64,000 nt of DNA from Pristiophorus japonicus (taxonomy: Eukaryota): assembly GCF_044704955.1 (NCBI RefSeq), contig NC_091988.1, positions 191,890,001-191,954,000 on the forward strand, given 5' to 3'. Positions 14,430 through 60,077 of this stretch are shown piece after piece. How positions within the stretch are numbered: position 1 is the first letter of the stretch; the number at the start of each line of letters is the position of its first letter. Made by a program: the position numbers and the translations under genes. The notes beneath the pieces were generated by a model. It did not search any database and had not been told where the DNA came from. It saw only the letters and a list, made by a program, of their open reading frames with translations.

Positions 14430-17179
14430 TAGAAACATAGAAACATAGAAAATAGGTGCAGGAGTAGGCCATTCGGCCCTTCTAGCCTGCACCGCCATTC
14501 AATGAGTTCATGGCTGAACATGCAATTTCAGTACCCCATTCCTGCTTTCACGCCATACCCCTTGATCCCCCTAGTAGTAAGGACTTCATCGAACTCCTTT
14601 TTGAATATATTTAGTGAATTGGCCTCAACAACTTTCTGTGGTAGAGAATTCCACAGGTTCACCACGCTCTGGGTGAAGAAGTTTCTCCTCATCTCGGTCC
14701 TAAATGGCTTACCCCTTATGCTTACACTGTGACCCCTGGTTCTGGACTTCCCCAACATTGGGAACATTCTTCCTGCATCTAACCTGTCTAAACCCATCAG
14801 AATTTTAAACGTTTCTATGAGGTCCCCTCTCATTCTTCTGAACTCCAGTGAATACAAGCCCAGTTGATCCAGTCTTTCTTGATATGTCAGTTCCGCCATC
14901 CCGTGAATCAGTCTGGTGAACCTTCGCTGCACTCCCTCAATAGCAAGAATGTCCTTCCTCAGGTTAGGAGACCAAAACTGTACACAATACTCCAGGTGTG
15001 GCCTCACCAAGGCCCTGTACAACTGTAGAAATACCTCCCTGCCCCTGTACTCAAATCCCGTCGCTATGAAGGCCAACATGCCATTTGCTTTCTTAACCGC
15101 CTGCTGTACCTGCATGCCAACCTTCAATGACTGATGTACCATGACACCCAGGTCTCGTTGCACCTCCCCTTTTCCTAATCTGTCACCATTCAGATAATAG
15201 TCTGTCTCTCTGTTTTTACCACCAAAGTGGATAACCTCACATTTATCCACATTATACTTCATCTGCCATGCATTTGCCCACTCACCGAACCTATCCAAGT
15301 CGCTCTGCAGCCTCATAGCATCCTCCTCGCAGCTCACACTGCCACCCAACTTAGTGTCATCCGCAAATTTGGAGATACTACATTTAATCCCCTCGTCTAA
15401 ATCATTAATGTACAGTGTAAACAGCTGGGGCCCCAGCACAGAACCTTGCGGTACCCCACTAGTCACTGCCTGCCATTCTGAAAAGTCCCCATTTACTCCT
15501 ACTCTTTGCTTCCTGTCTGCCAACCAGTTCTCAATCCATGTCAGCACACTACCCCCAATCCCATGTGCTTTAACTTTGCACATTAATCTCTTGTGTGGGA
15601 CCTTGTCGAAAGCCTTCTGAAAGTCCAAATATACCACATCAACTGGTTCTCCCTTGTCCACCCTACTGGAAACATCCTCAAAAAATTCCAGAAGATTTGT
15701 CAAGCATGATTTCCCTTTCACAAATCCATGCTGACTTGGACCTATCATGTCATCTCTTTCCAAATGCACTGCTATGACATCCTTAATAATTGATTCCATC
15801 ATTTTACCCACTACCGATGTCAGGCTGACCGGTCTATAATTCCCTGTTTTCTCTCTCCCTCCTTTTTTAAAAAGTGGGATTACATTGGCTACCCTCCACT
15901 CGATAAGAACTGATCCAGAGTCAATGTAATGTTGGAAAATGACTGTCAATGCATCCGCTATTTCCAAGGCCACCTCCTTAATACTCTGGGATGCAGTCCA
16001 TCAGGCCCTGGGGATTTATCGGCCTTCAATCCCATCAATTTCCCCAACACAATTTCCCGACTAATATTGATTTGCCTCAGCTCCTCCTCCTTACTAGACA
16101 CTCTGACCCCTTTTATATCAGGAAGGTTGTTTGTGTCCTCCTTAATGAATACCGAACCAAAGTACTTGTTCAATTGGTCCGCCATTTCTTTGTTCCCCGT
16201 TATGACTTCCCCTGATTCTGACTGCAGGGGACCTACGTTTGTCTTTACTAACCTTTTTCTCTTTACCTATCTATAGAAACTTTTGCAATCCGTCTTAATG
16301 TTCCCTGCAAGCTTCTTCTCGTACTCCATTTTCCCTGCCCTAATCAAACCCTTTGTCCTCCTCTGCTGAGTTCTAAATTTCTCCCAGTCCCCGGGTTCAC
16401 TGCTATTTCTGGCCAATTTGTATGCCACTTCCTTGGCTTTAATACAATCCCTGATGTCCCTTGATAGCCACGGTTGAGCCACCTTCCCTTTTTTATTTTT
16501 ACGCCAGACAGGAATGTACAATTGTTGTAGTTCATCCATGCGGTCTCTAAATGTCTGCCATTGCCCATCCAAATCAACCCCTTAAGTATCATTCGCTAAT
16601 CTATCCTAGTCAATTCACGCCTCATACCTTCAAAGTTACCCTTCTTTAAGTTCTGGACCATGGTCTCTGAATTAACTGTTTCATTCTCCATCCTAATGCA
16701 GAATTCCACCATATTATGGTCACTCTTCCCCAAGGGGCCTCGCACAACGAGATTGCTAATTAATCCCCTCTCATTACACCACACCCAGTCTAAGATGGCC
16801 TCCCTCCTAGTTGGTTCCTCGACATATTGGTCTAGAAAACCATCCCTTATGCACTCCAGGAAATCCTCCTCCACCGTATTGCTTCCAGTTTGGTTAGCCC
16901 AATCTATGTGCATATTAAAGTCACCCATTATAACTGCTGCACCCTTATTGCATGCACCCCTAATTTCCTGTTTGATGCCCTCCCCAACATCACTACTACT
17001 GTTTGGAGGTCTGTACACAACTCCCACTAACGTTGTTTGCCCTTTGGTGTTCTGTAGCTCTACCCATATAGATTCCACATCATCCAAGCTAATGTCCTTC
17101 CTAACTATTGCATTAATCTCCTCCTTAACCAGCAATGCTACCCCACCTCCTTTTCCTTTTATTCTATCCTTCCTGAATG
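14430..17179 (-). mobile_element. Young CR1 LINE (2.75 kb; APE endonuclease + RT)
   Basis: EN motifs GGGVALLVK, VYRPP, MGDFN, SDHN (16596-17204); RT ORF 14528-15973; frameshifts near 16570 and 15981 and a stop near 16267. Confidence 0.97.
14528..15973 (-). CDS. CR1 ORF2 reverse transcriptase portion (481 aa open, separated from EN by a frameshift)
   Basis: YRPVSLTS, DFQKAFDKV, GVPQGSVLGP and FADDTK motifs. Confidence 0.85.
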   Translation of the reverse strand: MALEIADALTVIFQHYIDSGSVLIEWRVANVIPLFKKGGREKTGNYRPVSLTSVVGKMMESIIKDVIAVHLERDDMIGPSQHGFVKGKSCLTNLLEFFEDVSSRVDKGEPVDVVYLDFQKAFDKVPHKRLMCKVKAHGIGGSVLTWIENWLADRKQRVGVNGDFSEWQAVTSGVPQGSVLGPQLFTLYINDLDEGIKCSISKFADDTKLGGSVSCEEDAMRLQSDLDRFGEWANAWQMKYNVDKCEVIHFGGKNRETDYYLNGDRLGKGEVQRDLGVMVHQSLKVGMQVQQAVKKANGMLAFIATGFEYRGREVFLQLYRALVRPHLEYCVQFWSPNLRKDILAIEGVQRRFTRLIHGMAELTYQERLDQLGLYSLEFRRMRGDLIETFKILMGLDRLDAGRMFPMLGKSRTRGHSVSIRGKPFRTEMRRNFFTQSVVNLWNSLPQKVVEANSLNIFKKEFDEVLTTRGIKGYGVKAGMGY

Positions 17180-22101: not shown

Positions 22102-23534
22102 AAGAACGACACCAGTTAGCGTAGACTGCATATGAAGGATTTGCTGGGGGTAAGGGTGCTCCAATGCAGCTATAATGTCCATCGTTACTGAAATACAAGT
22201 TTCAGGACAGAAAAAAAAGGCACATTTTAATTTGTTGCTACTTCAGGTCTCAGTCACAGGGCAGAAGTACAGATGAATCAAACCATAGTGTGAGCATCAG
22301 TTTTATTTTTAAAAAAATACACTGTGTGAAAGCTACTGTGCCAGGGGTTTGGGGCCTAAGAAGAATCTGAGCCACATTCTAGGCCATGTCCTTTGTGAAA
22401 TGACAGAGAAACTTAAACTACGTATATTCTTAACTCTCAAAGAAGATTTAAGTTATAAGATTTGAAATTCCTGACTCAACAGGAATAAATAAACCCATTT
22501 ATATCTAACTCCATGACTGCAAGGATAAAGTTAGTGAATGTGAGAGTAATATTAATGCTAGGAATGAAACATTTTTCCAATTTTTGCATCCAGTGTCAGC
22601 ATCAAGTGCTCCCAGGTTGGTATCTAGCACGGATTAGATGCAGAGCAAAGCTCCCCCCACCCCCCACCTACTCTGCCCCCATAAAGTATCCTAACCCCAA
22701 CCTTCACAGGGCTCTCCCTGTTGCACCAGTATCACATTTAATTTCCTGCGCAGGCAATCCTTCGGCCTCCAGACTGCAATGTTAGCACGGAAATATGGAC
22801 AGTTTTGTGCTGGGGACTTGCTTCCCTCTCGGAGAATTGCTCAAACGCAACAGAGACGAAAAGAAAAACTGTGAGTTCTGAAAAACTGAAAGAAAAACAG
22901 AAAATGCATGGCAGGTCCAACAGTATCGGAACAGGAAAACACCTCGGGTCAGACCTGCTTACCTACACTCAGCAGTGAAAGGAGACTTTTATCTCGTCAG
23001 GGTCAGCTGGATTGGAATCTTGCCCAAGGGTGAAAGGTCATTGCTCTAATGGACTATAGCCTAGAAATGACTTTTAATGATATTAGCCTATAAATGTTTA
23101 CCTAAAATAAATACGATAATGCTTCTGCCAAAAGAGGGGATAACCGAATGCCACAAAATGTGTTGCGTTCACTGGAAATAAATAATTGCGAACGATAATT
23201 TTTTTAGGCTTATTCCAGAAAAGTATTCGCAATTATATAGTGCCTTAACGCATCTTTTAGAAATGCTCACAGGACGTCACATGCAATCGATTATTTTGCA
23301 GAGCAGTAATTGTTGTTAACAGGCACATGTGGCAGCCATTTGTTCTTACACAGGAAGATCCCACAGGCGGTAATGAAAGAATGAGCAGTTTAATTTGTAT
23401 TCGGTTGCGGCTCTTTGATACGTGTTCGCTTACCAGAAGAAGTCAATTCGTCGGCATTGACGACAATAACTATTTATATTCACCGTGCTTATGTGGAAAT
23501 CTGGTGTAATTGGAAATGATATAGTATTTATAAA

Positions 23535-24318
23535 TTGGGTTAACCTCCCTGCCCCCCCCGTCCCCACCCTGCCCCCCGCCCCCCTATTTTCCTAAACCGC
23601 GCCCCCCTGCCCCCACCCTTCCCCCCCGCCCCTACCCTTCCTCCCCGCCCCCAGCCTGCCCCCCACCCCCTGCCTCCCCGCCCCCCACCTTGCTAAACCC
23701 CACCCCACCCTGCCCCAATACCCCGCCTCCTCGCTTTGCTAAACCCCGCCCCCCGCCCCCACCCTGCCCCCTGCCCCCTATCTTCCTAAACCGCGCCCCC
23801 CTGCCCCCACCCTTCCCCCCCCGCCCCCACCCTTCCCCTCCCGCCCCTACCCTTCCTCCCCGCCCCCCCACCCCCCCCACCCCCAGCCTGCCCCCACCCT
23901 TCCCCCCCGCCCCTATCCTTCCTCCCCGCCCCCCCACCCCCGCCACCCCCAGCCTGTCCCCCACTCCCTGCCCCCCCGCCCCCCACCTTGCTAAACCCCA
24001 CCCCACCCTGCCCCAATACCCCGCCTCCTCGCTTTGCTAAACCCCGCCCCCTGCCTCCCCTGCCCCCACCCTTCCCCCCCCCGCCCCTACCCTTCCTCCC
24101 CGCCCCCCCACCCCCTTCCCCCCCGCCCCCCACCTTGCTAAACCCCACCCCACCCTGCCCCAATACTCCGCCTCCTCGCTTTGCTAAACCCCGCCCCCTG
24201 CCCCCACCCTGCCCCCCCGCCCCCCGTCCCCACCCTGCCCCCATCCCACCCCCTACCTTGCTAAACCCCGCCCCCTGCCCCCACCCTTCCTCTCCCCCGC
24301 CCTACCTTGCTAAACCCA
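23535..24318. repeat. C-rich compound minisatellite
   Basis: Oligo-C runs punctuated by about ten CTAAACC anchors; a ~65-bp block recurs at ~23688, ~23986 and ~24133. Confidence 0.9.
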
Positions 24319-25124
24319 CTCAGTGCTCAAGGCTATTCCTGTGTGCAAATTATCAGAAGTGTTACGTTCCTGTTATTGCCTTTTGAATGCTTAAAATTAG
24401 CAAACCAACGTCACAAGACAGTGCAGCCAGCGCTGTTTCACTTCCCTCTGACTCTAACAAAACTTCCCAGGGAGGTTCGATGGTGACGCAGTGAATCTCA
24501 TAACTTTGTATCATTTCAATGTAAATGAGACGATTGTGTGAAATTGTGGCCAATCTAGAATTTGGGATTCACAGGTTTCACTCATCACAGAATATTATAT
24601 TCCAAATTTTTTGACTTTCTCGACTGTTCTCTTCGGTGTTTGCTTGGCTGGGGCGAACAGGGGGCAAAGGTCAATGGCAGCAGCCACTGGCAGCAATGGG
24701 TACATTCAGAACATGAATTAGGCCATTCAGCCCCTCAGGGCTACTCCACCTTTCGATCAGAGCATGGCTGATCTGCACCTCGATTCCATTTTCCCACCTT
24801 TGCTCCCTATCCCTTGATACCCTTACCCAACAAAAAATATCAGCTAGCTGCTCTCATATTTTATGATGCCATTGTTGTTCTGTGGTGGGAGTGTGGGTAG
24901 GAAATCTTTGAGCCGAATAAGACAGACAAAGAATGTGACAGAGTTTCGAAGGCATTCATTACTGAGAGGCACCCCCTCATGGCACCAGTGGGGGGGTGCG
25001 AGGATGTGGGAAGTGTCTCTCCCTTCGCCCCCTCCCCCTCAGTCTGGCCTAATTTTATTGTCGGCTTTATGATCCATTTTCTGAATAAGATTTTTGGGCA
25101 TTTTATCAGGTTGCACCTATCAAT

Positions 25125-33203: not shown

Positions 33204-33965
33204 CCATTGTTTAGGATGACAAGAGGAAGGGAAAGAAGTTCACAGGCCCCCTCTTGACTTCATATAAACACAATTTGAATCAAGAAATCTTTAAAATTCA
33301 CTGTCTACAATTATGGTAACACATCGCCTTTTATTGGACAGGCACTGAGTTCTGTGAATCTAGCCAGACTGACTGGAACAACCCAAGTGCTGTTAGTCTT
33401 TCCTAATCAGCTGAGGGGGGGAGTTCCTGCAAGAGGACACATCAACCCCGTAAAGATTTATAACACTTTGAAATATAAATAAGAAAGTGGATACTGGAGC
33501 GTTCCAACCACTGAAGATACTTTACTGACAGATTCTTGTCCAAGGTGTCCTTATGCAGAATTTGAAATGATTAGTCAGAGCTTTGCACAATAAATACACC
33601 AATACTCGGTAACCATGAAGATGGGCATCTCTACTGTAATGTTTAATAAGATTGCACATAACCAAATACCTGGGACAAGCTTGTAATATAAACCAATGGT
33701 TGTTGTAGAATAGTAAAACTGAGACTGAAGCTTGCGCACTTTATAGAACATTATCCGAGCCCTAAATCTGCATCGCTATCTTGAAACCTTTCCCAAATAA
33801 TTATTATTTTATGCTGTGTACAAAACATGATGGATATGTGGGGGGAAAAAAAGTTAAAATGCAAATGAAAGACTGATCTCATGGTTCCAATAACATTGTC
33901 GAGTAATCTGTATGATCTGATTTGTGATGTCACTGAGAGGGAATTACAGTCATTCGTGATATAAG

Positions 33966-35850
33966 CATAGAAACATAGAAAATAGGTGCAGGAGTAAGCC
34001 ATTTGGGCCTTCGAGCCTGCACCGCCATTCAATGAGTTCATGGCTGAACATGCAACTTCAGTACCCCATTCCTGCTTTCTCGCCATACCCCTTGATCCCC
34101 CTAGTAGTAAGGACTACATCTAGCTCCTTTTTGAATATATTTAGTGAATTGGCCTCTTCAAATTTCTGTGGTCGAGAATTCCACAGATTCACCACTCTCT
34201 GGGTGAAGAAGTTTCTCCTCATCTCGGTCCTAAATGGCTTACCCCTTATCCTTACACTGTGACCCCCTGGTTCTGGACTTCCCCAACATTGGGAACATTC
34301 TTCCTGAATCTGACCTGTCTAAACCCGTCAGAAATTTAAACGTTTCTATAAGATCCCCTCTCATTCTTCTGAACTCCAGTGAATACAAGCCCAGTTGATC
34401 CAGTCTTTCTTGATATGTCAGTTCCGCCATCCCGGGAATCAGTCTGGTGAACCTTCGCTGCACTCCCTCAGTAGCAAGAATGTCCTTCCTCAAGTTAGGA
34501 GACAAAAACTGTACACAATACTGCAGGTGTGGCCTCACCAAGGCCCTGTACAACTGTAATAACACCTCCATGCCCCGTACTCAAATCCCCTCGCTATGAA
34601 GGCCAACATGCCATTTGCTTTCTTAACCGCCTGCTGTACCTACATGCCAACCTTCAATGAATGATGTACCATGACACCCAGCTCTCGTTGCACCTCCCCT
34701 TTTCCTAATCTGTCACCATTCAGATAATAGTCTGTCTCTCTGTTTTTACCACCAAAGTGGATAACCTCACCACATTATACTTCATCTGCCATGCATTTGC
34801 CCACTCACCTAACCTATCCAAGTCACTCTGCAGCCTCATAGCATCCTCCTCGCAGCTCACACTGCCACCCAACTTAGTGTCATTCGCAAATTTGGAGATA
34901 CTACATTTAATCCCCTCGCCTAAATCATTAATGTACAATGTAAACAGCTGGGGCCCCAGCACAGAACCTTGCGGTACCCCACTAGTCACTGCCTGCCATT
35001 CTGAAAAGTACCCATTTACTCCTACTCTTTGCTTCCTGTCTGCCAACCAGTTCTCAATCCACGTCAGCACACTAACCCCAATCCCATGTGCTTTAACTTC
35101 GCACATTAATCTCTTGTGTGGGACCTTGTCGAAAGCCTTCTGAAAATCCAAATACACCACATCAACTGGTTCTCCCTTGTCCACTCTACTGGAAACATCC
35201 TCAAAAAATTCCAGAAGATTTGTCAAGCATGATTTCCCTTTCACAAATCCATACTGACTTGGACCTATCATGTCACCTCTTTCCAAATGCACTGCTATGA
35301 CATCCTTAATAATTGATTCCATCATTTTACCCACTACCGATGTCAGGCTGACCGGTCTATAATTCCCTGTTTTCTCTCTCCCTCCTTTTTTAAAAAGTGG
35401 GGTTACATTGGCTACCCTCCACTCCATAGGAACTGATCCAGAGTCTATGGAATGTTGGAAAATGACTGTCAATGCATCCGCTATTTTCAAGGCCACCTCC
35501 TTAAGTACTCTGGGATGCAGTCCATCAGGCCCTGGGGATTTATCGGCCTTCAATCCCATCAATCTCCCCAACACAATTTCCCGACTAATAAGGATTTCCC
35601 TCAGTTCCTCCTCCTTACTAGACCCTCTGACCCCTTTTATATCCGGAAGGTTGTTTGTGTCCTCCTTAATGAATACCGAACCAAAGTACTTGTTCAATTG
35701 GTCTGCCATTTCTTTGTTCCCAGTTATGACTTCCCCTGATTCTGACTGCAGGGGACCTACGTTTGTCTTTACTAACCTTTTTCTCTTTACATACCTATAG
35801 AAACTTTTGCAGTCCGTTTTAATGTTCCCTGCAGTCTTCCTCTCGTACTC
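33966..35850 (-). mobile_element. CR1 LINE, 5'-truncated, same subfamily as 14430 and 37895
   Basis: ORF 34720-35985 contains the tether and RT (catalytic FADD mutated to FAND); several indels. Confidence 0.96.
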
Positions 35851-37574: not shown

Positions 37575-37584
37575 ACAATGTCTG

Positions 37585-37800
37585 TTAAAATGCATATTGT
37601 TTAACCGTGAATGATATGTTATCGTGCATATTGTGTTACAATGTATGCTGTGTTATAATGCATATTATATTACTTTGGAAGGTGTGTTATAATGCATATT
37701 GTGTTATAATGGAAGGTGTGTTATAATGCATATTGTGTTACAATGGAAGGTGTGTTATAATGCATATTGTGTTACAATGTGTGATATGCATTATAATTAA
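37585..37800. repeat. AT-rich 17-bp minisatellite
   Basis: Alternating TGCATATTGTGTTATAA and TGGAAGGTGTGTTATAA units. Confidence 0.85.
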
Positions 37801-37894
37801 TGGTGTGCATAATGTATATAGTGATACAGCATGTGGTAGATGTTCATTTAGGAATATCTGGCTGATGCAGATTGCATCTTTCAGGCTAGTTCAT

Positions 37895-40800
37895 AGAAAC
37901 ATAGAAACATAGAAAATAGGTGCAGGAGCAGGTCATTCAGCCCTTCTAGCCTGCACCGCCATTCAATGAGTTCATGGCTGAACATGAAACTTCAGTACCC
38001 CATTCCTGCTTTCTCGCCATAACCCTTGATCCCCCTAGTAGTAAGGACTACATCTAACTCCCTTTTGAATATATTTAGTGAATTGGCCTCAACTACTTTC
38101 TGTGGTAGAGAATTCCACAGGTTCACCACTCTCTGGGTGAAGAAGTTTCTCCTCATCTCGGTCCTAAGTGGCTTACCCCTTATCCTCAGACTGTGACCCC
38201 TGGTTCTGGACTTCCCCAACATTGGGAACATTCTTCCTGCATCTAAACTGTCTAAACCCGTCAGAATTTTAAACGTTTCTATGAGGTCCCCTCTCATTCT
38301 TCTGAACTCCAGTGAATACAAGCCCAGTTGATCCAGTCTTTCTTGATAGGTCAGTCCCGCCATCCCGGGAATCAGTCTGGTGAACCTTCGCTGCACTCCC
38401 TCAATAGCAAGAATGTCCTTCCTCAAGTTAGGAGACCAAAACTGTACACAATACTCCAGGTGTGGCCTCACCAAGGCCCTGTACAACTGTAGCAACACCT
38501 CCCTGCCCCTGTATTCAAATCCCCTCGCTATGAAGGCCAACATGCCATTTGCTTTCTTAACTGCCTGCTGTACCTGCATGCTAACCTTCAATGACTGATG
38601 TACCATGACACCCAGGTCTCGTTGCACCTTCCCTTTTCCTAATCTGTCACCATTCAGATAATAGTCTGTCTCTCTGTTTTTACCACCAAAGTGGATAACC
38701 TCACATTTATCCACATTATACTTCATCTGCCATGCATTTGCCCACTCACCTAACCTATCCAAGTCACTCTGCAGCCTAATAGCATCCTCCTCGCAGCTCA
38801 CACTGCCACCCAACTTAGTGTCATCCGCAAATTTGGAGATACTGCATTTAATCCCCTCGTCTAAATCATTAATGTACAATGTAAACAGCTGGGGCCCCAG
38901 CACAGAACCTTGCGGCACCCCACTAGTCACTGCCTGCCATTCTGAAAAGTACCCGTTTACTCCTACTCTTTGCTTCCTGTCTGCCAACCAGTTCTCAATC
39001 CACGTCAGCACACTACCCCCAATCCCATGTGCTTTAACTTTGCACATTAATCTCTTGTGTGGGACCTTGTCGAAAGCCTTCTGAAAGTCCAAATATACCA
39101 CATCAACTGGTTCTCCTTTGTCCACTTTACTGGAAACATCCTCAAAAAATTCCAGAAGATTTGTCAAGCATGATTTCCCTTTCACAAATCCATGCTGACT
39201 TGGACCTATCATGTCACCATTTTCCAGATGCACTGCTATGACATCCTTAATAATTGATTCCATCATTTTACCCACTACTGAGGTCAGGCTGACCGGTCTA
39301 TAATTTCCTGTTTTCTCTCTCCCTCCTTTTTTAAAAAGTGGGGTTACATTGGCTACCCTTCACTCCATAGGAACTGATCCAGAGTCAATGGAATGTTGGA
39401 AAATGACTGTCAATGCATCCGCTATTTCCAAGACCATCTCCTAAGTACTCTGGGATGCAGTCCATCAGGCCCTGGGGATTTATCGGCCTTCAATCCCATC
39501 AATTTCCCCAACACAATTTCCCGACTAATAAGGATTTCCTTCAGTTCCCCCTCCTTACTAGACCCTCTAACCCCTTTTATATCCGGAAGGTTGTTTGTAT
39601 CCTCCTTAGTGAATACCGAACCAAAGTACTTGTTCAATTGGTCTGCCATTTCTTTGTTCCCCGTTATGACTTCCCCTGATTCTGACTGCAGGGAACCTAC
39701 GTTTGTCTTTACTAACCTTTTTCTCTTTATATACCTATAGAAACTTTTGCAATCCACCTTAATGTTCCCTGCAAGCTTCTTCTCGTACTCCATTTTCCCT
39801 GCCCTAATCAAACCCTTTGTCCTCCTCTGCTGAGTTCTAAATTTCTCCCAGTCCCCAGGTTCGCTGCTATTTCTGGCCAATTTGTATGCCACTTCCTTGG
39901 CTTTAATACTATCCCTGATTTCCCTAGATAGCCACGGTTGAGCCACCTTCCATTTTTTATTTTTACGCCAGACAGGAATGTACAATTGTTGTAATTCATC
40001 CATGCGGTCTCTAAATGTCTGCCATTGCCCATCCACAGTCAACCCCCTAAGTATCATTCGCCAATCTATCCTAGCCAATTCACGCCTCATACCTTCAAAG
40101 TTACCCTTCTTTAAGTTCTGGACCATGGTCTCTGAATTTACTGTTTCATTCTCCATCCTAATGCAAAATTCCACCATATTATGGTCACTCTTCCCCAAGG
40201 GGCCTCGCACAATGAGATTGCTAATTAATCCCCTCTCATTACACAACACCCAGTCTAAGATGGCCTCCCCCCTAGTTGGTTCCTCAACATATTGGTCTAG
40301 AAAACCATCCCTTATGCACTCCAGGAAATCCTCCTCCACCGTATTGCTTCCAGTTTGGCTAGCCCAATCTATGTGCATATTAAAGTCACCCATTATAACT
40401 GCTACACCTTTATTGCATGCACCCCTAATTTCCTGTTTGATGCCCTCCCCAACATCCCTAGTACTGTTTGGAGGTCTGTACACAACTCCTACTAACATTT
40501 TTTGCCCTTTGGTGTTCTGCAGCTCTACCCATATAGATTCCACATCATCCAAGCTAATGTCTTTCCTAACTATTGCATTAATCTCCTCTTTAACCAACAA
40601 TGCTACCCCACCTCCTTTTCCTTTTATTCTATCCTTCCTGAATGTTGAATACCCCTGAATGTTGAGTTCCCAGCCCTGATCATCCTGGAGCCACGTCTCC
40701 GTAATCCCAATCACATCATATTTATTAACATCTATTTGCACAATTAATTCATCCACCTTATTGCGGATACTCCTTGCATTAAGACACAAAGCCTTCAGGC

Positions 40801-41222
40801 TTGTTTTTTTAACACCCTTTGTCCTTTTAGAATTTTGCTGTACAGTGGCCCTTTTTGTTCTTTGCCTTGGGTTTCTCCGCCCTCCACTTTTCCTCATCTC
40901 CTTTCTGTCTTTTGCTTTTGCATCCTTTTTGTTTCCCTCTGTCTCCCTGCATTGGTTCCCATCCCCCTGCCATATTAGTTTAAATCCTCCCCAACAGCAC
41001 TAGCAAACACTCCCCCTAGGACATTGGTTCCGGTCCTGCCCAGGTGCAGACCGTCCGGTTTGTACTGGTCCCACCTCCCCCAGAACCGGTCCCAATGCCC
41101 CAGGAATTTGAATCCCTCCCTGCTGCACCACTGCTCAAGCCACGTATTCATCTGCGCTATCCTGCGATTCCTACTCTGACTAGCACGTGGCACTGGTAGC
41201 AATCCCGAGATTACTACTTTTG
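37895..41222 (-). mobile_element. Young CR1 LINE, 3.3 kb: ORF1 esterase C-terminus + full ORF2 with a single frameshift
   Basis: ORF1 end KVVISGLLPVP...DGLHLGRTGTNVL (SGNH esterase); EN NARS/ITETWL/GDFN/SDHN; RT; TSD AGTTCAT (37888-37894 / 41223-41229). Confidence 0.97.
37992..40897 (-). pseudogene. CR1 ORF2 (APE endonuclease + RT), 1-bp deletion at ~39442
   Basis: ORFs 39422-40897 (EN) and 37992-39275 (RT) join if one base is restored in LHPRVLKE. Confidence 0.9.
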
Positions 41223-41439
41223 AGTTCATCTTATGGATATTAATAAAACTGAATGGATTCACCTGACACTTGAATTTCTGTCGGCCTAATTGTTCAGGTA
41301 ACATGTTATCATCACTGAAGCCAATTTCTCTTTGGAGAAGGCAGTGTGAAATCAGATTTGCAATTACTTCTGCACAGAATGCACAGGTTATATGCATATG
41401 CTAAATCATTGGAAGAGCCCCTATAATGTTATATGTATA

Positions 41440-42185
41440 CAAAGAAGTAGGAAGAGTTACATTTTGGATAGAAGAATAAGGAGAGGCAATGTAGCCTAAA
41501 TGGTACAATCTTTGTAGGTTGCAAGACAAGTCAATAGGACTGTTAAAAAAGCAAATGGGATCCTTAAATAGATATATAGATTACGCAAACTAAGGAAGTT
41601 ATGCAAAACCTTTATAAATCACTGGTTAGGTCTCAGCTGGAGGGTATTGTGTCCAATTCTGGGTACCACACTTTAGACAGGATGTCAAGGCCTTAGAGAG
41701 GCTGCAGAATTGGTGTATTGGAATGGTGTCAGGGTTGAGGGTCTTCAGTTATGTGGAGTGACTAGAGAAGCTGGGATTGTTTTTCAATAGAGCAGAGAAG
41801 AGTAAGGGGATACTTAATAGATTTGTTCAAAATTATGAGGCGTTTTGACAGACTGAATAGGAAGAATCTGTTTCCACTGGTAGGTGGGTCAGTAACGAGT
41901 GGACACAGATTTAAAATAATTAGCAAAAGAACCAGAGGAGAGATGAAGGATTTTTTTATGCAACATGTTGTTATGATCTGAAATGCACTGCCTGAAAGGG
42001 CAGTGGCAGCAGGTTGAATAGCAACTTTCAAAGGGGAGTTGGATAAATACTTGAAGTGGAAAACAGTGCAGGGATACGGAGGACAAGCAGGGAAGTGGGA
42101 TTTATTGAATAGCTCTAGTAAAGAGATGGCACATGCAAGTTGGGCAGAATGGCTTCCTTCTATTATGTATCATTCTATGATTCTT
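41440..42185 (+). mobile_element. Old CR1 3' fragment
   Basis: Degenerate YKSLVRSQLE/YCVQFWVPH, GHRFK motifs; ATTCTATGATT tail. Confidence 0.8.
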
Positions 42186-42319
42186 TGATTTTATACACTT
42201 CTTTACTCGTATAATGTTGTATGTATATGTTTACTAATTGTAAAAACAAGCTGAACTGTTAAACCAAAATATATTTTTTGCCAAAAATTCTGTTTTCTTG
42301 TTTGCAACTTGCTTGGTTT

Positions 42320-43500
42320 TAAGGATGAACTTATATAAGGAGAGGGCAGTGAAGAAAGAAGGTGAGGCGGAGGGAGAGAACTTCAGAGCATTGGGTCCAG
42401 GTAGCTGGAAGCGTGGGTTGAAGGGAGAGAGAAAAGCACAAGAGGCTGGAGTCAGAAGGATGGAGAGTTTGGGGAAAACAGATACAGGGAGCGATGAGGC
42501 CATGGATGAATTGGAAAACAAGGATGCAAATTTTAATTTGAAAGCTTGCGGAGGATCCGGAGCCAAGGTAGCTCAGCGAGCACAAGGGTGATGGGCGAGC
42601 AGGACTTGGTGCAAGATACGACATAGGCAGCAGAATTTTGAATGAGCTGAAGTTTATCGAGGGTGGGGGCTGGGAGGCTGACCAGGAGAATACATTGAAT
42701 ACATTGAGATAGATGTATTTGTACATTTGTAAAGGCAGAGATAAGGGCTTCAACAGCAACTGGGTTGAGGTAGGGATGGAGGAAGGTGATATAATAGAGG
42801 TGGATGTGGGTTTATGTTTAGAAGTATGGGGTTGGTAGTTCAGCTAGGATGCTGAGGTCACAGAGAGCTCGGTTCAGCCTGAGACAATGGTTGGGGAGGA
42901 AGGTGATGTCGATGGTGAACCTATGAGTTTTGTGGGGTTTGGACTTCCCAATGTTTAGCGAGAGGGAATTGTGCCTCATCCAAAACTCCAGTTGAGACAG
43001 CAGTCTGAACAAGCACAGAGGGCCGTGGAGAGGTCAAGAGGTGGTGGAGAGAGCTGTGGAAATTGATCCCATGTCACTAAAGAGCAACATATAGATGAGG
43101 AAGGTGAGGAGGTCAAGGATGGAACCCTGGGAGAGCTTTCGAAGTTACAGTGTGGGGGTGGAAAGGGAAGTCATTATTAGAGGTGGCTACAATTGAAGTA
43201 AGGGTGTAACCAAACAGGGACAGTCCCATTAAACGGGACAATAGAGGAGAAGTGTTGGAGGAAGGTGGTGTGCTTGGTTGTGTCAAAGGCTATAGAGAGG
43301 TCGAAGTTGAGAAGGGATACTGTACCATAGTCACAATTACAGAAAACGTCATTTGTGTCAGTGCTGTAGGAAGAGCAGAAACAGGAATGGAGAGATTTTC
43401 AAAGGCTGTTGTGAGAAGGGTGGAAGGTGACAACACATTCAAGGGCTTTACAGAGGAAAGAGAGATTGGAGCTGGGGCAAAAGTTTGCAAAGTCAGACGG
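42320..43500 (-). mobile_element. Old L2 LINE ORF2 fragment
   Basis: Minus-strand WMRHNSLSLNIGKS and degenerate GSILDL and FKICILVFQFIHGL-like L2 motifs. Confidence 0.7.
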
Positions 43501-43506
43501 GTGCAA

Positions 43507-44640
43507 ATAACTGCTGCATCAATGCTCTTAGAAATTCCTTTCTCCACAAAGGCCAATGTCTCTTCAAAGAATTCTAATGGGTTTATCAGGCATGACCAGC
43601 TCCGTTGGGCGGGCCACATTGTCCACATGCCCAACACAAGACTCCCAAAGCAAGCGCTCTACTCGGAACTCCTACACGGCAAGCGAGCTCCAGGTGGGCG
43701 GAGGAAACGTTTCAAGGACACCCTCCAAAGCCTCCTTGATAAAGTGCAACATTCCCACCGACACCTGGGAAGCCTTGGCCAAAGACCGCCCTAAGTGAAG
43801 GAAGAGCATCCAGGAGGGCGCTGAGCACTTTGTGTCTCATCATCGAGAGCATGCAGAAAATAAGCGCAGGCAGCGGAAAGAGCGTGCGGCAAACCAGACT
43901 CCTCATCCACCCTTTCCTTCAACCGCTGTCTGTTCCACCTGTGACAGAGACTGTGGTTCTCGTATTGGACTGTACAGCCACCTGAGAGTGGAAGCAAGTC
44001 TTCCTCGATTCAGAGGGACTGCCTATGATGATGAAAGCTATACTAACTTCATACTTCATTAGATATTTCAGGATACCCATCCTCAGGATCATTTCTAATA
44101 TAGTGGCAGATGCCATGGGCTGTAATTTCCAGGATACCTCCCTTTGTCCTTTGCGAAGAGGTGTTATGTTCCCCTTTTTCCAATCCTTTGGTACAAGTCA
44201 AATTTCTTATGACTGTCTAAAGATCCTTTCGAGAATGCAACCAATTTTATCAGCCATTTGCTTAAACACCCTTGTATGCAAGTTACGTGGTCCCGGGGCT
44301 ATATCCTACTTCAGTGTCTTCAATATTTCTGTCATTTCCTTATTACTGCCCTTAAAATTTCTTATTTCTTTCTTGGAAAATCAACCCGTACTTCTGGAAG
44401 AGAGTGTCACTTCTTCTGTGAATACCAAGAAACCCATAATTCTTCAAGTGCCCAGTAACACACTGCCCTACCCTGTACCCTTCAAAGTCCAGACTATTTT
44501 CTTGCTTCTCTGCCTACTCAGGATGTAGTTATAGAGCATTTTATATTGTTTTTTAAGATTCGTACAATCCGATCTCATTGTCTGCATGCAAGCCTGTCCA
44601 CTTTCTTCTTTTCTTTATACGTGTCCGTGAAGTTTGTAGT
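43507..44640 (-). mobile_element. Ancient CR1 ORF2 fragment split by an RTE insertion
   Basis: SCLINPLEFFEE (43507-43593) continues on the other side of the RTE as GNITPL and APGPRNLHTRVFK (cf. SPGPDGLHPRVLK). Confidence 0.7.
43594..44033 (+). mobile_element. RTE/BovB-like LINE 3' fragment
   Basis: DQLRWAGHIVHMPNTRLPKQALYSEL...CSTCDRDCGSRIGLYSH; (ATG)n tail. Confidence 0.93.
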
Positions 44641-45145
44641 TCTCTCAACTCTAGTTGATAGACTTATTCTGAGTACCACTCAGGGACATCTTGAACCTGA
44701 TTGCAGAAGTTCCATCAGAAGAATTCTCGGTATTATCTGGCAACTCTGCTCTGCAATGGAGACAGAGTGCCAGGCTTCTCACGAGGACATTAGCGCTCAC
44801 CTCTGATTGACTGGGAAACAGGAACAGCACAAGAGAGACCATTTCGAACAGTGGGTGATCCTACTTGTGCAGTTTAGTTAATAGAGTTTCCAGCCAGGGA
44901 CAGGCTGTTCTATTAATGACCTGGACCCAATGGAGATTTTCCTCACCAGGGCAGGGTTTTGGCAGACTGATGCTGATTTTCTTGGGTCTGGGCACATGTT
45001 CGGATGCACAACAGATTCCTGGCATGATTCCTGTCATCAAACGGGAAGCCACCTGTGCCAGCAAGGAAACTCTGGCAGTGCCCCCAGTGTAGTACCCCAA
45101 GAACCGATGAACCGATAACCGGGCAGTAGTGCCCTGATGATCAGA

Positions 45146-45835
45146 ATAATCATCATAAGCAGTCCCTCGAAATCGAGGAAGACTTGCTTCCACTCCAAAA
45201 GCTCAGGTGACTGTACAGTCCAATATGGGAATTACAGTCTCTGTCACAGGTGGGACAGACAGTGGTTGAAGGAAAGGGTGGGTGGGGAGTCTGGTTTGCC
45301 TCACGCTCCTTCCGCTGCCTGCGCTTGTTTTCTGCATGTTCTCGGCGACGAGACTCAAGGTGCTCAGCGCCCTCCCGGATGCTCTTCCCCCACTGAGGGC
45401 GGTCTTTGGCCAGGGACTCCCAGGTGTCGGTGGGGATGTTGCATTTCATCAAGGAGGCTTTGAGGGTGTCCTTGAAATGTTTTCTCTGCCCACCTGAGGC
45501 TCGCTTGCTGTGTAGAAGTTCCAAGTAGAGCGCTTGCTTTGAGAATCTTGTGTCAGGCATGCGAACAATGTGGCCTGCCCAACGGAGCTGGTCCTGCTTG
45601 ATAAACCCATTAGAATTCTTTGAAGAGACATTGGCCTTTGTGGATTCCCAAGAGCATTGATGCAGCAGTTATCCAACGGAGCTGGTCGAGTGTGGTCAGT
45701 GCTTCGATGCTGGGGATGTTGGCCTGATCGAGAACACTGACGTTGGTGCGTCTGTCCTCCCAGGGGATTTGCACGATCTTGCGGAGGCATCGCTGGTGGT
45801 ATTTCTCTAGCGCTTTGAGGCGTCTACTGTATATG
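45146..45835 (-). mobile_element. RTE/BovB-like LINE 3' fragment with a 79-bp internal insertion
   Basis: LEKYHQRCLRKI...DQLRW, insert, then MPDTRFSKQ...CPTCDRDCNSHIGLYSH. Confidence 0.93.
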
Positions 45836-46063
45836 CCTCCCACTGAAAGCCTCGGCTGAGACCAACACCTTCAGCAGGTAATCTCTTACCATCTGGTGGG
45901 AGACAAGGCCACTACAGAGACTTTTCCCACAATTTGGGTATTTACATGCACTTCCTGAGGGTCTACTACCACCACATGGCAGCCCTAGGACCAGTTTGTA
46001 AGTGTGGTGGACCAGGACCCCATGCCAAGCACCCCCTCCCCACCTCCCCCATTGCCATTTGGT

Positions 46064-46530
46064 AGAAAGAAAGGAAGACTTGCGTTTATGTAGCACCTTT
46101 CATGACCACCGGATGTCCCAAAGCGCTTTACAGCCAATGAAGTACTTTTGAAATGTAGTCACTGTTGTACTGTCGGAAACACAGCAGCCAATGTGCACGC
46201 AGCAAGCTCCCACAGACAGCAATGTGATAATGACCAGATAATCTGTTTTCGATATGTTGATTGAGGGATAAATATTGGCAAGAATACCAGGGTAGTAACT
46301 CCCCTGCTCTTCTTCGAATTAGTGCCATGGGATCTTTTGCGTCCACCCGAGAGGGCAGACTGGACCTCGGTTTAACATCCCATCCGAAAGATGGCACCTC
46401 TGACAGCGCAACACTCCCTCAGTACTGCACTGGAGTGTCAGCTTAGATTTTTGTGCTCAAGTTGCTGGAGTAGGACTTGAACCCACAACCTTTTGACTCG
46501 GAGGCAAGGATGCCACCCACTGAGCCACTG
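46064..46530 (-). mobile_element. SacSINE1/Deu-type SINE
   Basis: GTGGCTCAGTGGG / GGGTTCAAGTCC head, Deu core and tail. Confidence 0.9.
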
Positions 46531-46819
46531 GAAGCAGCAAGAAGGGGTAGGGGTTACGGGAATCCTAATCAGGCGGCGAGGCCTCATCACCAAAAATTCT
46601 CTGACACTCTATCCCCAATTTGGGTGGTGAATTCACCCAGACTCTTTTACACGATAAATCACCCCTTAAATCTGTGACTAACTCTTTCATCAGCCTGTTC
46701 TGATCAACTGCTCTAATTACTAATTATGATAATGGTACATATTAAAGCAGTTTCTGCTGTTTTTGTTAAATGTTTTGCCAACATCTTTCCATGTGTTTAA
46801 GAAACCACAACACAAATGA

Positions 46820-47310
46820 TTTGAATAGTCTGGGTGCCTCACTTCCAAAGCAAATTGATACGTTGTAAAGGATTCGAAGAAAGTAGCTATGCTGAGGGTC
46901 GAGCGTGAGATTCACAGAGCTGAACCGTTATTCATCAGAGAAAAGAATTGGAGTGGGGATGTAATCCAGATTTTTTAAATGGAGAGAGGTGTAGATAATG
47001 CAGATGCAATTTATTTAGCTTGTACTGTAAGTGCAGACCTAAATATAAAATGAACAAGCCTCAATCCAAATTTTGAGATTAGAAGGATTTTGCCTTCTGA
47101 CAAGAGTTACAGATCTTCCTGCGAAATAGATTACTGGACAAAGCAGTTAATGCTGTGTGAGTTAGTACATTTAAATAAAGAACTGAAGGGGAGAAATGCA
47201 CGGGGCTATGGGGAAAGAGCAGGGGGAGTGGGACTAATTGGATCACATCTTTCAAAGAGCCGGCACAGGCATGAGGGCCGAATGGCCCCCTTCTGTACCG
47301 TGTGATGCTA
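46820..47310 (+). mobile_element. Ancient CR1 3' fragment
   Basis: Degenerate CR1 ORF2 end and GGGCCGAATGGCC 3'UTR motif. Confidence 0.55.
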
Positions 47311-48957
47311 TAGGCTAGAAATTCGATATCGCCCACTTGTGATGCCGCCGGGGGGACTAACTTTAGCGCCGGGCGATGTCTACCGCTTCAAAGTGGGATA
47401 TTCACTTGTATCGCCCCAAGAAGAGAGTGGAGCGCTAAGGGAACCTTTCCCCACTCCTCCTCGGGCGCTAACGGAGCGATAGCGCAGGAGGCCGACTCAA
47501 TCTTTTGGCGCTAGGATGCCGGCAATCCTAGCGCCTGAAGATGAAAAAGAAATCCTGGTGAAAATTTCAATAAACTTCACCCACACTTCCCCACAACTGC
47601 AACAAATAAATAGAAGTTGAAAAACTGGAATATCAGCACTTACCTTGCACGATATTGCCCCGGGATCGTCGCTGGACCGAGTGCTTTCCCACCAACAACA
47701 ACCACAGCAGTAATGAAAGGCTGCACCCATCGCTCCTCCACTTTATTCTAAAACTGCCCACTGCGCCAGGTCTTGGTGACTGCATCCCTGCCTGCAGGCG
47801 GTGGCGCAGTGTTTCTCGGGTTGGTACCAAGCTTATTCTTTCGATCATCTCGGGTAATGTGCACTTCTTGATGGGGGGGCATGGGCAGGTGGTAATGTGG
47901 AAGGCCCGGCTTGGGTCTCTTCAGAGGCTGGTCTGGAGATTGTAGTGGCAGTTGATTCCATCAATGGCCGCAGGGTATGGACGTGTTCCCTTATTACAGC
48001 AGCTAACTCTGACATCCCCTCCCTCATGTGCCCCGACAGCATCTCAAATACCTGTAACATTCTCTCTCTCATGTTCACCGACAGTGTATCAAATACCTGC
48101 AACATTCCCTCCTTCATGTTCAACGACATTGTATCAGCTGCCTGAGACATTCCCTCCCTCATGTTCCTGGACAGTGTTCCCATTTCTCGTGAGAGTGTTG
48201 TTACTTCTCCCGACAGTCCCGATACCTCATCACCCACCCCGCTGATGGTGTCCAGGAGTGATCGTGTAAGGTCAATGCTCTCCCCACTCATTGCCATCGT
48301 CCGAACCACATCTGTTACATCTTGCATCTCAGGAGAGTGCTGTCGATATCTCCTTCCCCTCCTCACCCTGGGTGTAGCTCGCTGCATCCTACCGGGACCC
48401 ACAGCCTCGGATGTTGGGGCCCTGGGTGTGCCTCGCTGCAATCCCACTGGGACCCGCAGCCTCGGACTGTGCAGAACCATGGAATGTCCCAACACTTGTA
48501 CCACTCAGGAAAGGGCCGGGCACCTCAATGGGCGGCACCTGCACCTCCTCCAGAGTGAGTACAACAGTGGGGGCTTCATCCTCCGCCTCCCCCTGCCCCT
48601 CTCCCTCACCCCTATGCTCTTGGTCTGGAAGGTGGGATTGGAAGATGTTCTCCTCTTCAGGCTCGTCCGCGTCTGAATATCCTTCTGCATCGGCTTCACC
48701 CTCGTCAGGGTTGGCCTCAAGTTCTGCAAAATATAACAGAACAGACAAATGGTTAACAGCAGAGGAGGGGGCAGGGTGGGTGGTATGAGTAGGCTCACAC
48801 AGCGCAGGCAGCAGGCTCATTTGAAGGACCACGATGAATGATAGCACATTGCATCAATCGAAGCGTAGCTGATGGAGACATCCCCATGAACCGAAACATG
48901 ACTAGCCCGTGCATTTCACATTTAGCAAAGCCAGACTGTGGAATTTGCAGGACTTAC

Positions 48958-49120: not shown

Positions 49121-49233
49121 CTGCAAAGATAACAATATAACTTTTTAGCGAGGGTGTCTTTCTGCTGGGTGGGAGATACAGATGGTCACATTTACAATTG
49201 CAATTCCAGTGAATAAATGAAAATATTACTTAC

Positions 49234-49470
49234 ACTAACTACTTGACCAAGGTCCTGCCACTTCTTTTTACACTGGCCTCCAGACCTCGGGATGGTCACC
49301 ATTGCACAGTAATCTTCTGCAAGTTGGTTCCAGCGTTTCTTCATTTCTTTGGGTGAAACTTTAACGTGACCTCTGCTGGTGTCCAGCTTGTGCCAACTAG
49401 CCTCAGTTACAGTAACTAGTGCCTCCACTTCATCCTGTGAGAAATTCTTGGTCCTTGAGCCGCGTTGCAT
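49234..49470 (-). CDS. Exon 1: Myb/SANT-like trihelix domain
   Basis: MQRGSRTKNFSQDEVEALV...KKRWNQLAEDY...RSGGQCKKKWQDL; donor GTAAGT. Confidence 0.8.
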
Positions 49471-49524
49471 ATTGCAGCTTGGATTTTTTTTCCACTGAGA
49501 ATTAAAGTTCTCACACACAACTGG

Positions 49525-49617
49525 CTCTTTAAAGATGGCCGAATGCAGATTGGAGGTATACTGGGCACGCGTGCCCATAGCAGTCACGTAAAAAGGACTT
49601 TTTTTTGCGCATGCGCA
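49525..49617. promoter_or_regulatory. Putative promoter of the Myb/SANT-like gene
   Basis: NRF1-consensus palindrome TGCGCATGCGCA (49606-49617), 16-bp palindrome TGGGCACGCGTGCCCA (49562-49577) and YY1-like AAGATGGCC (~49532), all 60-150 bp upstream of the ATG. Confidence 0.4.
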
Positions 49618-50756
49618 GAAGGGGGGGGGGGCATCGTTTTTTTGGCGCAGACATTAGGCTCCACCCCAGAAGCTAGCTGCGTGGCGCCAATTTCAAAAAT
49701 TAGTATGGGTAAACTTTCGAGTTTTTTTTTGGAGTAGTTGGGCTCCCCAAAAGAACGGACGTAACTCTTGAAATCCGCCAAAAAACAGCATTGGGGAAAA
49801 CTGAGCCCCTTATTTTAGGAGATTAAATGGTAAAGGCAAAGTTCACGATAAATCAAATTGTAGAAGAAGCAGGTTGGATGGTCGGCACATTTTCTCAGCC
49901 ATTTCCTGCAATGCTAATTTCTTGGACAAAGTAAAGCAATTAAAAATGAGAGAAGGGTGAAGACAGCTGCAAAAAAATGCAGAGCTAAAATTTAGTCTCC
50001 AGGACCTAATTTTGGCCTCTTGGGCCATCAAATGAGATGGATTTCTTTCAGATAATCGTATTTTTGGGATACAGTACATGACTAATTTGAGAAATGAAAT
50101 TTGGTAAATGTAATCACATGCTTGGGAGGGACAGGTGACTTTGGACCTATAGTTTCCAAAGCTCACCATCACTTGGCCGTTTCCTCTCCTCATGTCAGGG
50201 TCTGGTTGTAGCCCAATTGACAGAGACTGATTGGCGTGATTAGTCAATAACTACGTTATCGTTGTATCATGCGACTACCAGGTGAACTAGATGGGCTGTG
50301 GTCTTTTTCTGTCTCGCATGTCCTATGTACCTATGCTGCACTGTTGCGCAAGCTGCTGCTTAAGCAGAAATGAGAGTTGGCAACTCAAACAGAAACCCTG
50401 CTTCAAACCATCAGCAGTGCATGCTGTTCAGACCTAAATATAGGTTTGTGCTGGTGAAGGGGTTAAGCAGAGTAACCTGCAAAAACACAGGAGTGCCATT
50501 TAGTCAGGACAAGAGAATAAAAGGTCACCTTGTATCATGAGAGCAAAAAGAAAATCGACTTCTACATTGAATTTATAAACACCTTTTCTCTTGTTCTCAA
50601 ATTGCTTTCAAATGCAAGCTTAAAGCTGAGTAACCCATGATAAAGGTCAATCAACTGGCCAGGACAAGATGGCCAAGGACATGGTGTATCCCTGGGGTGT
50701 CTCCAGCTCAAGTAACTCCAAAGAGGAACAGTGTGGAGGAATGGGAAGCTTCCCGA

Positions 50757-57755: not shown

Positions 57756-58368
57756 AAATTTCTGCAGTATGGAAGAGTCCGTGTTCCACATTTTTATTGA
57801 AAGTGCGAGATTGTAGCCCCTCTTCCAATATCCGAAGGGGTTTCACTTCAGTCCCACGCTCTTGATCTTTGGGCACCCTGTGCGGAGGGGAGCGGGCAGG
57901 TCGGAAGGCCTCCTCATAGGACTGCTCCTGGGCCTGGCCAAGAGGTCATCAGCTGGTCCAGGCAGCGGGCGGTCAAGGGGGTTGTTCAGCCCGACTGCCT
58001 GCCTCTCTTCCGCGGTTACATCCGAGCCAGGGTATCCCTGGAGATGGAGCACGCGGTGTCCACCGGTACGCTCGTGGCCGTCCGCGAGAGGTGGGCACCG
58101 GAGGGACTGGAGTGCATCATCACCCCCGGCAACCAAATTTTAATTTGATTTTATATGTTTAAAGTTTAATTTTTTTAATGTGTCGGTTTTAGTGTCCCCC
58201 CCGCCCCGACCATTTTAACCAGGGGGCACTTGTATAATTTGTGTTTTGGCGCCCTCAGAAAAAGAAAACAAAAAAACAAAATAAAACAAGGGGGCACCTG
58301 AAAAGGTTTTGGAGTGTGATCCCCCCTTTAATCAGGGGGCACTTGTTTAACGTGCACAACTAAAATAG
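57756..58368 (+). mobile_element. Tx1-clade LINE 3' fragment, copy 1
   Basis: EESVFHIFIE, LIFGHPVRRGAGRSEGLLIGLLLGLAK; 220-nt 3'UTR ending AAAATAG; flanked by TTGTAGAGCTGTT. Confidence 0.85.
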
Positions 58369-58382
58369 TTGTAGAGCTGTTG

Positions 58383-60077
58383 AAGCCTGGCCAGAGAACT
58401 GGCAGGAGCTGGAGGCCGAAGTCGCCGCTCGCCTAGGGCGCTGGACAGGACTGCTCCGAGTGCTGTCCTACAGAGGTCGAGCGACAGTCATAAACCAGCT
58501 GGTGGCCGCTATGCTGTGGTACCGGTTGGTCACTTTGACCCCGCCCCCTGTGTTTGTCGCCAAGATACAGAAGAAGCTGGTGGACTTCTTCTGGAACAAC
58601 AGGAAGCACTGGGTCTCTGCTGCGGTTTTGAGTCTCCCGCTTAGGGAGGGCGGTCAGGTGTTGGTGTGCGGCAGCACCCAGCATGCATCTTTCCGTCTGC
58701 AGACCCTGCAGAGATACCTCTACGTCGAGCCCCCTCCTAGGTGGCGTGCGCTGGCGATGTATTTCTTCCGCCAGCAGTACAGCCTCAATTATGACACACA
58801 GCTCCTGTTTGTGAGCCTGGGGGGGGCGTCAGGACCACCATGCAGGGGCTGTCTGTCTTTTACCAGAAACTCATCAGGGTCTGGAACAGAGTCACCACCA
58901 AGCGCAGCTCTCTCCCGTCTGAAGTGGCGGCTGTCCTGCAGGAGCCGCTGCTCAGGAATCCGTAACTCCATGCCGCGGTTTTAGGTGGCAGGCGGACGAG
59001 AGGGTTGTGGCTGGCGAGGTGACCAGGGTCAGGGATCTGCTCGATGGCGGAGGAGCGGGTTGGACGGCGGCAGACGAGCTGGTACGGCGCCTATCCTGGG
59101 CCGACGTCCGGCGCGCAGCCGATGCCATCGAGTCGCTAAAAACAGCTCTGGGCCCTGACTCCATTAGGTGTGTTGAGGAGGCTCAAGCACGTGGGGAGAT
59201 CCCGTCCGAACTGACCCCCGTCCGGATGGAATTCCTCAGTGGCACCAAGCCCTGAAACCTCCCTCGGGAGTCGGCGCCTCACAACTTGAGCCTCCTCGGG
59301 GAAATCTCCTCCGTGCCTTTCAGTTCTGCGCGGAGGGGATTCGTGTAAGGGCTGCTCCTGCACACTCTCCACCTTGCTATCCTCGTCTGCCGCCTGGACA
59401 CACCATGGCACACCATCTTGCCGTCCGGAGGAGGCGGGGGTCCCCAATGGAGTGTACTGTACACGGGAGTCCTCCCTCTATCTATTGGGGACTTGGCCTG
59501 GAGGGTGTTGCACGGAGCAGTCCTGTGCAATAAGTTTTTAAGTCGGTTCACGGGCTCCCAGGCCGCCTGCAATTTCTGCGGTCTGGAAGAGTCCGTGTTC
59601 CACGTTTTTATTGAGTGTGCGAGGTTGCAGCCCCTCTTGCAATATTTGATGGGGCTGCTCCTCAAATTCTGGTTGCACTTCAGTCCCATGCTCCTGATCT
59701 TTGGGCACCCTGTGCGGAGGGGAGCGGGCAGGTCGGAAGGCCTCATCGTAGGACTGCTCCTGGCATGGCCAAGGTGGCCATCAGCAGGTCCAGGCAGTGG
59801 GCGGTCGAGGGGGTCGTTCAGCCCGACTGCCTGCCTCTCTTCAGCGGTTACATCCGAGCCAGGGTGTCCCTGGAGATGGAGCACATGGTGTACACCGGTA
59901 TGCTAGTGGCCTTCTGTGAGTGGTGGGCGCCGGAGGGACTGGAGTGCATCATCACCCCCGGCAACCAAATTTTAATTTGATTTATGTTTCGGGCTAAAAG
60001 CTATATTGGTTTATTTGTCAGTTTTAGTGTCCCCTGTTAATAAGTGGGCCCTCAATTGATGGTCTCAATTAAAATGG
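58383..60077 (+). mobile_element. Tx1-clade LINE 3' fragment, copy 2 (disrupted ORF2 C-terminus)
   Basis: LSYRGRATVINQLVAAMLWY, LPLREGG, DLAWRVLHGA and CNFCGLEESVFHVFIEC (CCHC zf-RVT) of the L1/Tx1 clade; ends AAAATGG. Confidence 0.9.

Follow-up and report, generated by a model that had tools for sequence, protein, structure and literature searches.

A decayed LINE of Pristiophorus japonicus carrying an inverted copy of its neighbour's flank, probably a repair-mediated duplication

In a 64-kb window of the Pristiophorus japonicus genome (NC_091988.1, 191,890,001–191,954,000, forward strand; all positions below are counted within this stretch of DNA), a copy of an RTE-type LINE, designated B, is interrupted by 79 nt that match, in inverted orientation, the DNA flanking a nearby copy of the same family, designated A. 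The origin that we consider probable is a repair-mediated duplication formed once A and B were both present, in which B was patched from the flank of its inverted neighbour.

Structure of the Interrupted Element

Copy A (43594–44033, plus strand), delimited by alignment within the window, is a 5'-truncated element with a short (GAT)n tail. Copy B is 88% alike to A, has the inverted orientation, and is separated from it by 1.1 kb. From left to right, B comprises a 3' part with its own tail (45146–45578, minus strand), a 15-nt sequence (45579–45593, minus strand), the insert (45594–45672, an inverted donor copy on the plus strand), the same 15-nt sequence again (45673–45687, minus strand), and a 5' part truncated near 45835 (45688–45835, minus strand), which is in register with the 3' part. 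When B is set against the window copies C and D, its two halves overlap by 15 nt.

Comparison of the insert with the reverse complement of 43507–43593, the sequence directly to the left of A, revealed 75 matching letters out of 79, with four substitutions and a single 8-nt gap that represents a deletion in the insert. The alignment score is 109 bits, while the best of 200 shuffles searched in the window reached 29.2, and the insert has no other match in the window than 43507–43593 on the opposite strand. The two copies of the 15-nt direct repeat are identical, and their sequence is that of A's first 15 letters (43594–43608) in reverse complement, from which the first copy (45579–45593) would originate; the second copy is B's own, and at the return joint, where it meets the insert at 45673, no letters are shared. 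In these respects the initial annotation, which described an inverted copy of the flank of A with an 8-nt deletion and a perfect 15-bp duplication, was accurate.

The donor (43507–43593, minus strand) is an 87-nt piece of an old CR1-type reverse transcriptase (RT) fragment. It aligns to the young CR1 copies of the window, and the alignment resumes after 44033, as expected from its description as native flank of A. The 5' continuation of the same old fragment (44034–44560, minus strand), recognised by tblastn with the ORF2 of the window's young CR1 and by DNA alignment, makes up the left part of the 1.1-kb spacer between A and B. The earlier statement that the CR1 frame resumes past 44033 applies to the sequence but not to the frame, which is decayed, and about 14 nt of CR1 are absent at the site of A (43593/44034) in comparison with the young copies; this gap represents either a target-site deletion or an earlier loss. 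Likewise, 43507–43593 is CR1-type as proposed, but the CR1 flank stops at about 43504–43514, and a different, L2-type LINE fragment lies further left. This old fragment (42303–43506, minus strand, the left limit being approximate) was recognised by its RT-like matches; its 5' (right) end adjoins the far end of the copied tract, and its left end resembles other repeats in the window.

The insert is 95% alike to the flank of A and only about 70% alike to the young CR1 copies, which identifies the flank of A specifically as the donor. At position 43589, the insert retains the base of the young CR1 copies while the donor differs; thus, insert and donor decayed apart after the copying. The young CR1-type copies themselves, three in number (14430–17179, 33959–35850, and 37893–40999), are 95–96% alike and carry long RT and endonuclease frames.

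The family names used here are our assumptions. The RTE label of copies A and B is based on motifs, for us as in the initial annotation, and not on an RT tree; the names CR1 for the donor and L2 for its left neighbour are likewise assumed from motifs. The (GAT)n tail was seen directly in the RTE-type LINE sequence. Pfam gave zero matches for copies A and B, and their leads in the Atlas scored 0.85–0.88, under its 0.9 mark, two of the three being to RVT_1 clusters. The donor and its left neighbour resemble LINE RT proteins of distinct types: the donor matches the young endonuclease-RT elements of the window, and the L2-type fragment matches other RVT_1 proteins, none of them among those in the window.

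Specificity of the Insert

Both of the other window copies that span the site, C and D, run through it without the insert, and the B segment 45673–45835 is 89% and 85% alike to them. Within the window, therefore, the insert is not a subfamily feature, as the initial annotation had expected. The search for further inverted LINE pairs of the same structure, which had also been suggested, covered the window: of its 14 inverted pairs less than 6 kb apart, one carries a two-copy flank, and this is the A/B pair itself.

Sequencing contigs from four runs of a single sample, which may be that of the window itself, were placed on the window at 85% likeness; contig depth summed in this way is not a true copy number. 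Over the donor bin, the depths summed to 10.6 and 34.9; the corresponding values were 5.7 and 11.3 in the single-copy spacer and 1–6 million over the LINE, with a family depth of 1–4 million at copy A. The bin over the insert had a summed depth of 60,000–67,000, but it holds eight LINE edge bases that could cause it. At 45673, 461–463 loose contig ends per run proceed as plain LINE. The longest left contig terminates at 43572 in all four runs. An exact 46-nt stretch common to donor and insert begins at 43543, so a 31-mer graph is expected to branch at 43572, and the contig end fits a second copy of this stretch with a different neighbour. Among the pieces listed from the four runs of this sample, no contig bridged either joint of the insert. 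Joints skipping 94 nt were present at depths of 22–64, which is above single copy, and hence probably derive from other copies of the family. A 22-nt LINE pattern found no locus in metagenome contigs. Runs X2 and X4, out of the four, show an alternative letter in single-copy contigs at each of positions 43400 and 44093, probably a second allele.

It is thus very unlikely that the insert is anything other than a local copy, whether an insert characteristic of a subfamily, a CR1 piece of unrelated origin flanked by a 15-nt target-site duplication, or a mistake of the assembly. The high depth of the insert bin leaves room for a small subfamily, but the depth over the donor bin is near single copy as against millions for the LINE, and the insert is far closer to the flank of A than to the young CR1 copies. 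A duplication created by assembly would lack the four substitutions and the 8-nt gap, nor would it predict the contig break at 43572. We conclude that the insert is most probably not a subfamily feature, is probably locus-specific, and is probably not a product of misassembly.

Divergence and Age

The initial annotation predicted a conversion tract in B near the junction. No such tract was detected: the identity between A and B is flat (66–67 of 74–75 columns per full bin), and near the joint B is no closer to A than to unlinked copies. With CpG sites set aside, 31 of 372 columns (8.3%) differ between A and B, compared with 8.1–10.6% for their distances to copies C and E. Six columns are common to A and B against C, D, and E; two of these carry states that are widespread in the family, and a third is a CpG change that departs from the family majority. 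Since no tract is visible, the point of entry onto A cannot be placed.

Insert and donor differ at 4 of 79 positions (5.1%, interval 1.4–12.5%), which is compatible with the 31/372 between A and B (Fisher p = 0.49); if the event dates from the time of B's insertion, the probability of four or fewer differences is 0.22–0.50. Judged from these divergences, the copying event is old, and its age may equal that of B or be half of it. The earlier note left open whether the copying took place in target-primed reverse transcription (TPRT) or by a switch in synthesis-dependent strand annealing (SDSA) or replication; both routes yield the structure, and age does not separate TPRT from later repair (p = 0.49).

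Three further candidates were considered and not adopted. A second template switch inside the insert was suggested by a cluster of two substitutions and the 8-nt gap matching a 9-mer in C, D, and E, but 3–15% of simulated clusters do so too. Copying of the whole 3' part of B from A would be compatible with the divergence (p = 0.49), yet the similarity ends with the element, and A and B are no closer than unlinked copies. A 3' deletion, of 13 nt in A and 6 nt in B, seemed to be shared and to start from one column; the gap in A sits between short direct repeats, and an alternative placement is possible.

Probable Mechanism and Its Alternatives

In the repair-mediated duplication that we favour, a double-strand break would have hit B some 15 nt within the stretch common to A and B. 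The plus strand of B is complementary to the plus strand of A, and the 3' strand of the left end could have paired with the latter 1–2 kb away, either through fold-back of the resected end or through strand invasion. Copy A would thereby have provided the homology as well as the first 15 copied letters: extension leftwards would have covered these 15 letters and 87 nt of the flank, at least 102 nt in all, and the extended strand would then have been released, after which end joining would have linked it to the right end of the break, which still held its own 15 letters. Donor and insert would afterwards have decayed independently. The break, the order of these steps, and the enzymes are what we infer from the arrangement described above.

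Because the right end would keep its own 15 letters, the order repeat–insert–repeat would arise with no backward step, and the length of the repeat would equal the distance between the break and the truncation point of A. The return by 15 nt postulated in the initial annotation is thus unneeded, while its central idea, that homology led a nascent strand of B onto A and past the truncation point into the flank, gains support from the donor specificity and the 15-nt repeat. The collinearity of B on either side of the insert, with the 15-nt overlap, also supports repair, and the return joint without shared letters suits end joining. Against it count the age of the event, which fits the time of B's own insertion equally well, and the absence of a conversion tract, which leaves the entry point unmarked.

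A switch during B's own insertion would yield an identical structure and is an unlikely but not negligible competitor. During TPRT, the cDNA would have left the RNA, copied the end of A and its flank, and resumed on the RNA at the point of leaving; this cDNA would have grown as an extension of the plus strand, complementary to the plus strand of A. The age is compatible, and the private changes of A (23) are not fewer than those of B (17). Templated insertions of less than 250 bp, 22 cases of which were reported within new L1 copies (bioRxiv 10.1101/2024.08.27.596794), resemble the present case in placing non-element DNA inside a LINE and are ascribed to pairing of the cDNA with nearby DNA (see also PMC11702581). 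However, these L1 insertions are known to date from the insertion of the element, unlike here, and the distance from template to site is typically no more than 15 bp, compared with 2 kb for the A/B pair (bioRxiv 10.1101/2024.08.27.596794; PMC11702581). LINE RTs are described as jumping between template ends without homology (PMC6895275), which would fit the return joint, although joints without shared letters are also frequent by chance. Moreover, TPRT requires two switches and an exposed strand of A, and no target-site duplication of B that is clear by eye ties the event to the insertion.

A template switch at replication without a two-ended break (FoSTeS/MMBIR-like), in which the nascent strand would have passed from B to A, to the flank, and back to the original template, is distinctly less probable. 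It would result in the same structure, and human germline variants commonly include insertions templated in inverted orientation by nearby DNA (PMC8421209), which are alike in the use of an inverted nearby copy and in the return to the original template. However, MMBIR in that work is defined by microhomology at both joints, while here long homology is available at one and no letters are shared at the other, even though a decay of 5% could have erased a little.

The Far End of the Copied Tract

The copying ends within about 0–7 nt of the old CR1/L2-type joint (43504–43514), and repair-mediated duplication alone gives no reason for it to stop there. The left neighbour, used as a query, matched 448 RT-like proteins at E ≤ 0.001. 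Among the 150 blastp alignments listed, 89 begin at codon 43506–43504; 123 of the 150 could be anchored, and in these the column of that codon is L in 105 and the conserved columns before it are unmatched. The CR1 DNA similarity extends to about 43504. Together, the codon at which the alignments start and the limit of the CR1 similarity place the joint at 43504–43514. The adjoining 3' remainder of CR1 was not found in 41200–47500, so the joint looks like a deletion. An inversion that moved the missing CR1 3' part to 41404–42193 is not supported, since the start of the fragment at that place lies some 120 residues beyond the expected one.

The window contains roughly one repeat end per 222 nt, which gives a probability of about 5% for a coincidence of tract end and joint. 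A weak 6-bp stem (43484–43489 with 43502–43507, plus strand) has the last copied base as its outer base; its folding energy is −3.6 kcal/mol (z −1.6), a value that 16 of 200 shuffles also reach, and such stem edges are found at 1.3% of window positions. For the 141 nt surrounding the donor, folding is no stronger than in shuffled sequence (z 0.20). The coincidence, for which the chance is 1–5%, was noticed post hoc on one case and is unexplained, and three readings remain: chance, a pause at a hairpin on a single-stranded template, and run-off at a second break healed as a deletion. A 6-nt repeat (43486–43491 and 43502–43507) spans the CR1/L2-type joint, as would be the case, we presume, in synthesis-dependent end joining.

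One could also propose a single event, in which B's cDNA passed onto A, ran off at a broken end at 43507, and jumped end to end to the remaining RNA, while the break was healed over about three shared letters as the CR1/L2-type deletion. An end-to-end jump back onto the RNA would leave no shared letters at the joint. We regard this combination as improbable; if true, the locus would preserve, in fossil form, a pair of reverse-transcriptase jumps and the deletion coupled to them at a distance of 2 kb.

Relation to Known Systems

Repair-mediated duplications (RDs) were described by Pace et al. (2009; Pace, Sen, Batzer, and Feschotte; PMC2671141), who screened for transposable elements (TEs) split by an insert of at least 50 bp with one donor. 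They reported 824 human cases within 5 kb, with a median of 147 bp, and microhomology together with a 4–21-nt duplication in 3 of 39 inspected cases; cases were found in ten vertebrates, including chicken, zebrafish, and mammals, at 0.08–0.65 per Mb of TE DNA. The interruption of B has the same features: an insert of 79 nt, halves of the same family and orientation whose overlap of 15 nt is within 30 bp of register, and a donor 2.0 kb away (43593 to 45594), that is, more than 50 bp and less than 5 kb. As in the published RDs, a poly(A/T) tail is absent, and the joints bear marks of repair, namely homology at one of them and the 15-nt duplication. The insert is an internal piece of CR1 RT lacking element ends and thus not a nested transposon insertion, although it belongs to a decayed TE, for which the filter of Pace et al. 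may differ. The insert has one match in the window, and the depth over the donor is near single copy at 85% likeness.

The class of repair scars is therefore already published (PMC2671141), and the difference here is the same-family inverted neighbour as primer. Priming homology in the published RDs is 2–9 nt, while here up to 440 nt of the inverted neighbour are available, and, unlike in those RDs, the apparent target-site duplication is explained as a copy from that neighbour. Such a subclass does not seem to be singled out in PMC2671141, whose supplements may hold cases. A literature search, biased towards open access and no proof of absence, found no title or abstract on a same-family inverted LINE as primer of a flank copy.

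An experimental counterpart of the steps proposed for B is known from yeast, where fold-back synthesis, release, and NHEJ (non-homologous end joining) with 0–5 bp of overlap produce inserts between 2 and about 150 bp long (Yu et al. 2024; PMC11724301). The similarity lies in an end that folds onto an inverted repeat, is extended and released, and is joined to the other end. However, the yeast system involves a 10-bp repeat and a 41-nt loop in an experimental, somatic setting, while the A/B pair involves LINE copies, a loop of 1.1–2 kb, and an old germline event. A comparable hybrid repair begun by homology-driven invasion is mentioned in the same paper (PMC11724301). Pairing over distance has been described as well: distant, diverged inverted repeats pair in single-stranded DNA, and Alu inverted repeats 30 kb apart interact in it (PMC10164571).

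Other Features of the Window

Several other repeats were observed in the window. Segments 57757–58199 and 59571–60034 are 84% alike over 469 columns and form a local direct repeat without further matches in the window; it lies around LINE-like frames at 58364–58984 and 59349–59906, the second with a zf-RVT match. A frame at 49192–49653 (minus strand) contains a Myb/SANT-like domain, and the adjoining open frames (47845–48853) hold a short internal repeat (48012–48177); we take these, as a guess, to be the remnant of a Harbinger-type transposon. A degenerate direct repeat (73%) occupies 37577–37828, directly after the tail of LINE copy D. A G+C-rich low-complexity repeat at 23534–24386 contains proline/glycine-rich open frames on both strands and is probably not coding.

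Implications

The insert in B is expected to be a neutral scar with no function, and a single scar of this kind in repeat DNA has little weight alone, while being a clear teaching example: the length of an apparent target-site duplication reads out how far a break lay from the truncation point of the neighbour. The truncation ends of inverted LINE pairs could in this way report, genome-wide, repair tracts that are otherwise hidden in shared homology.
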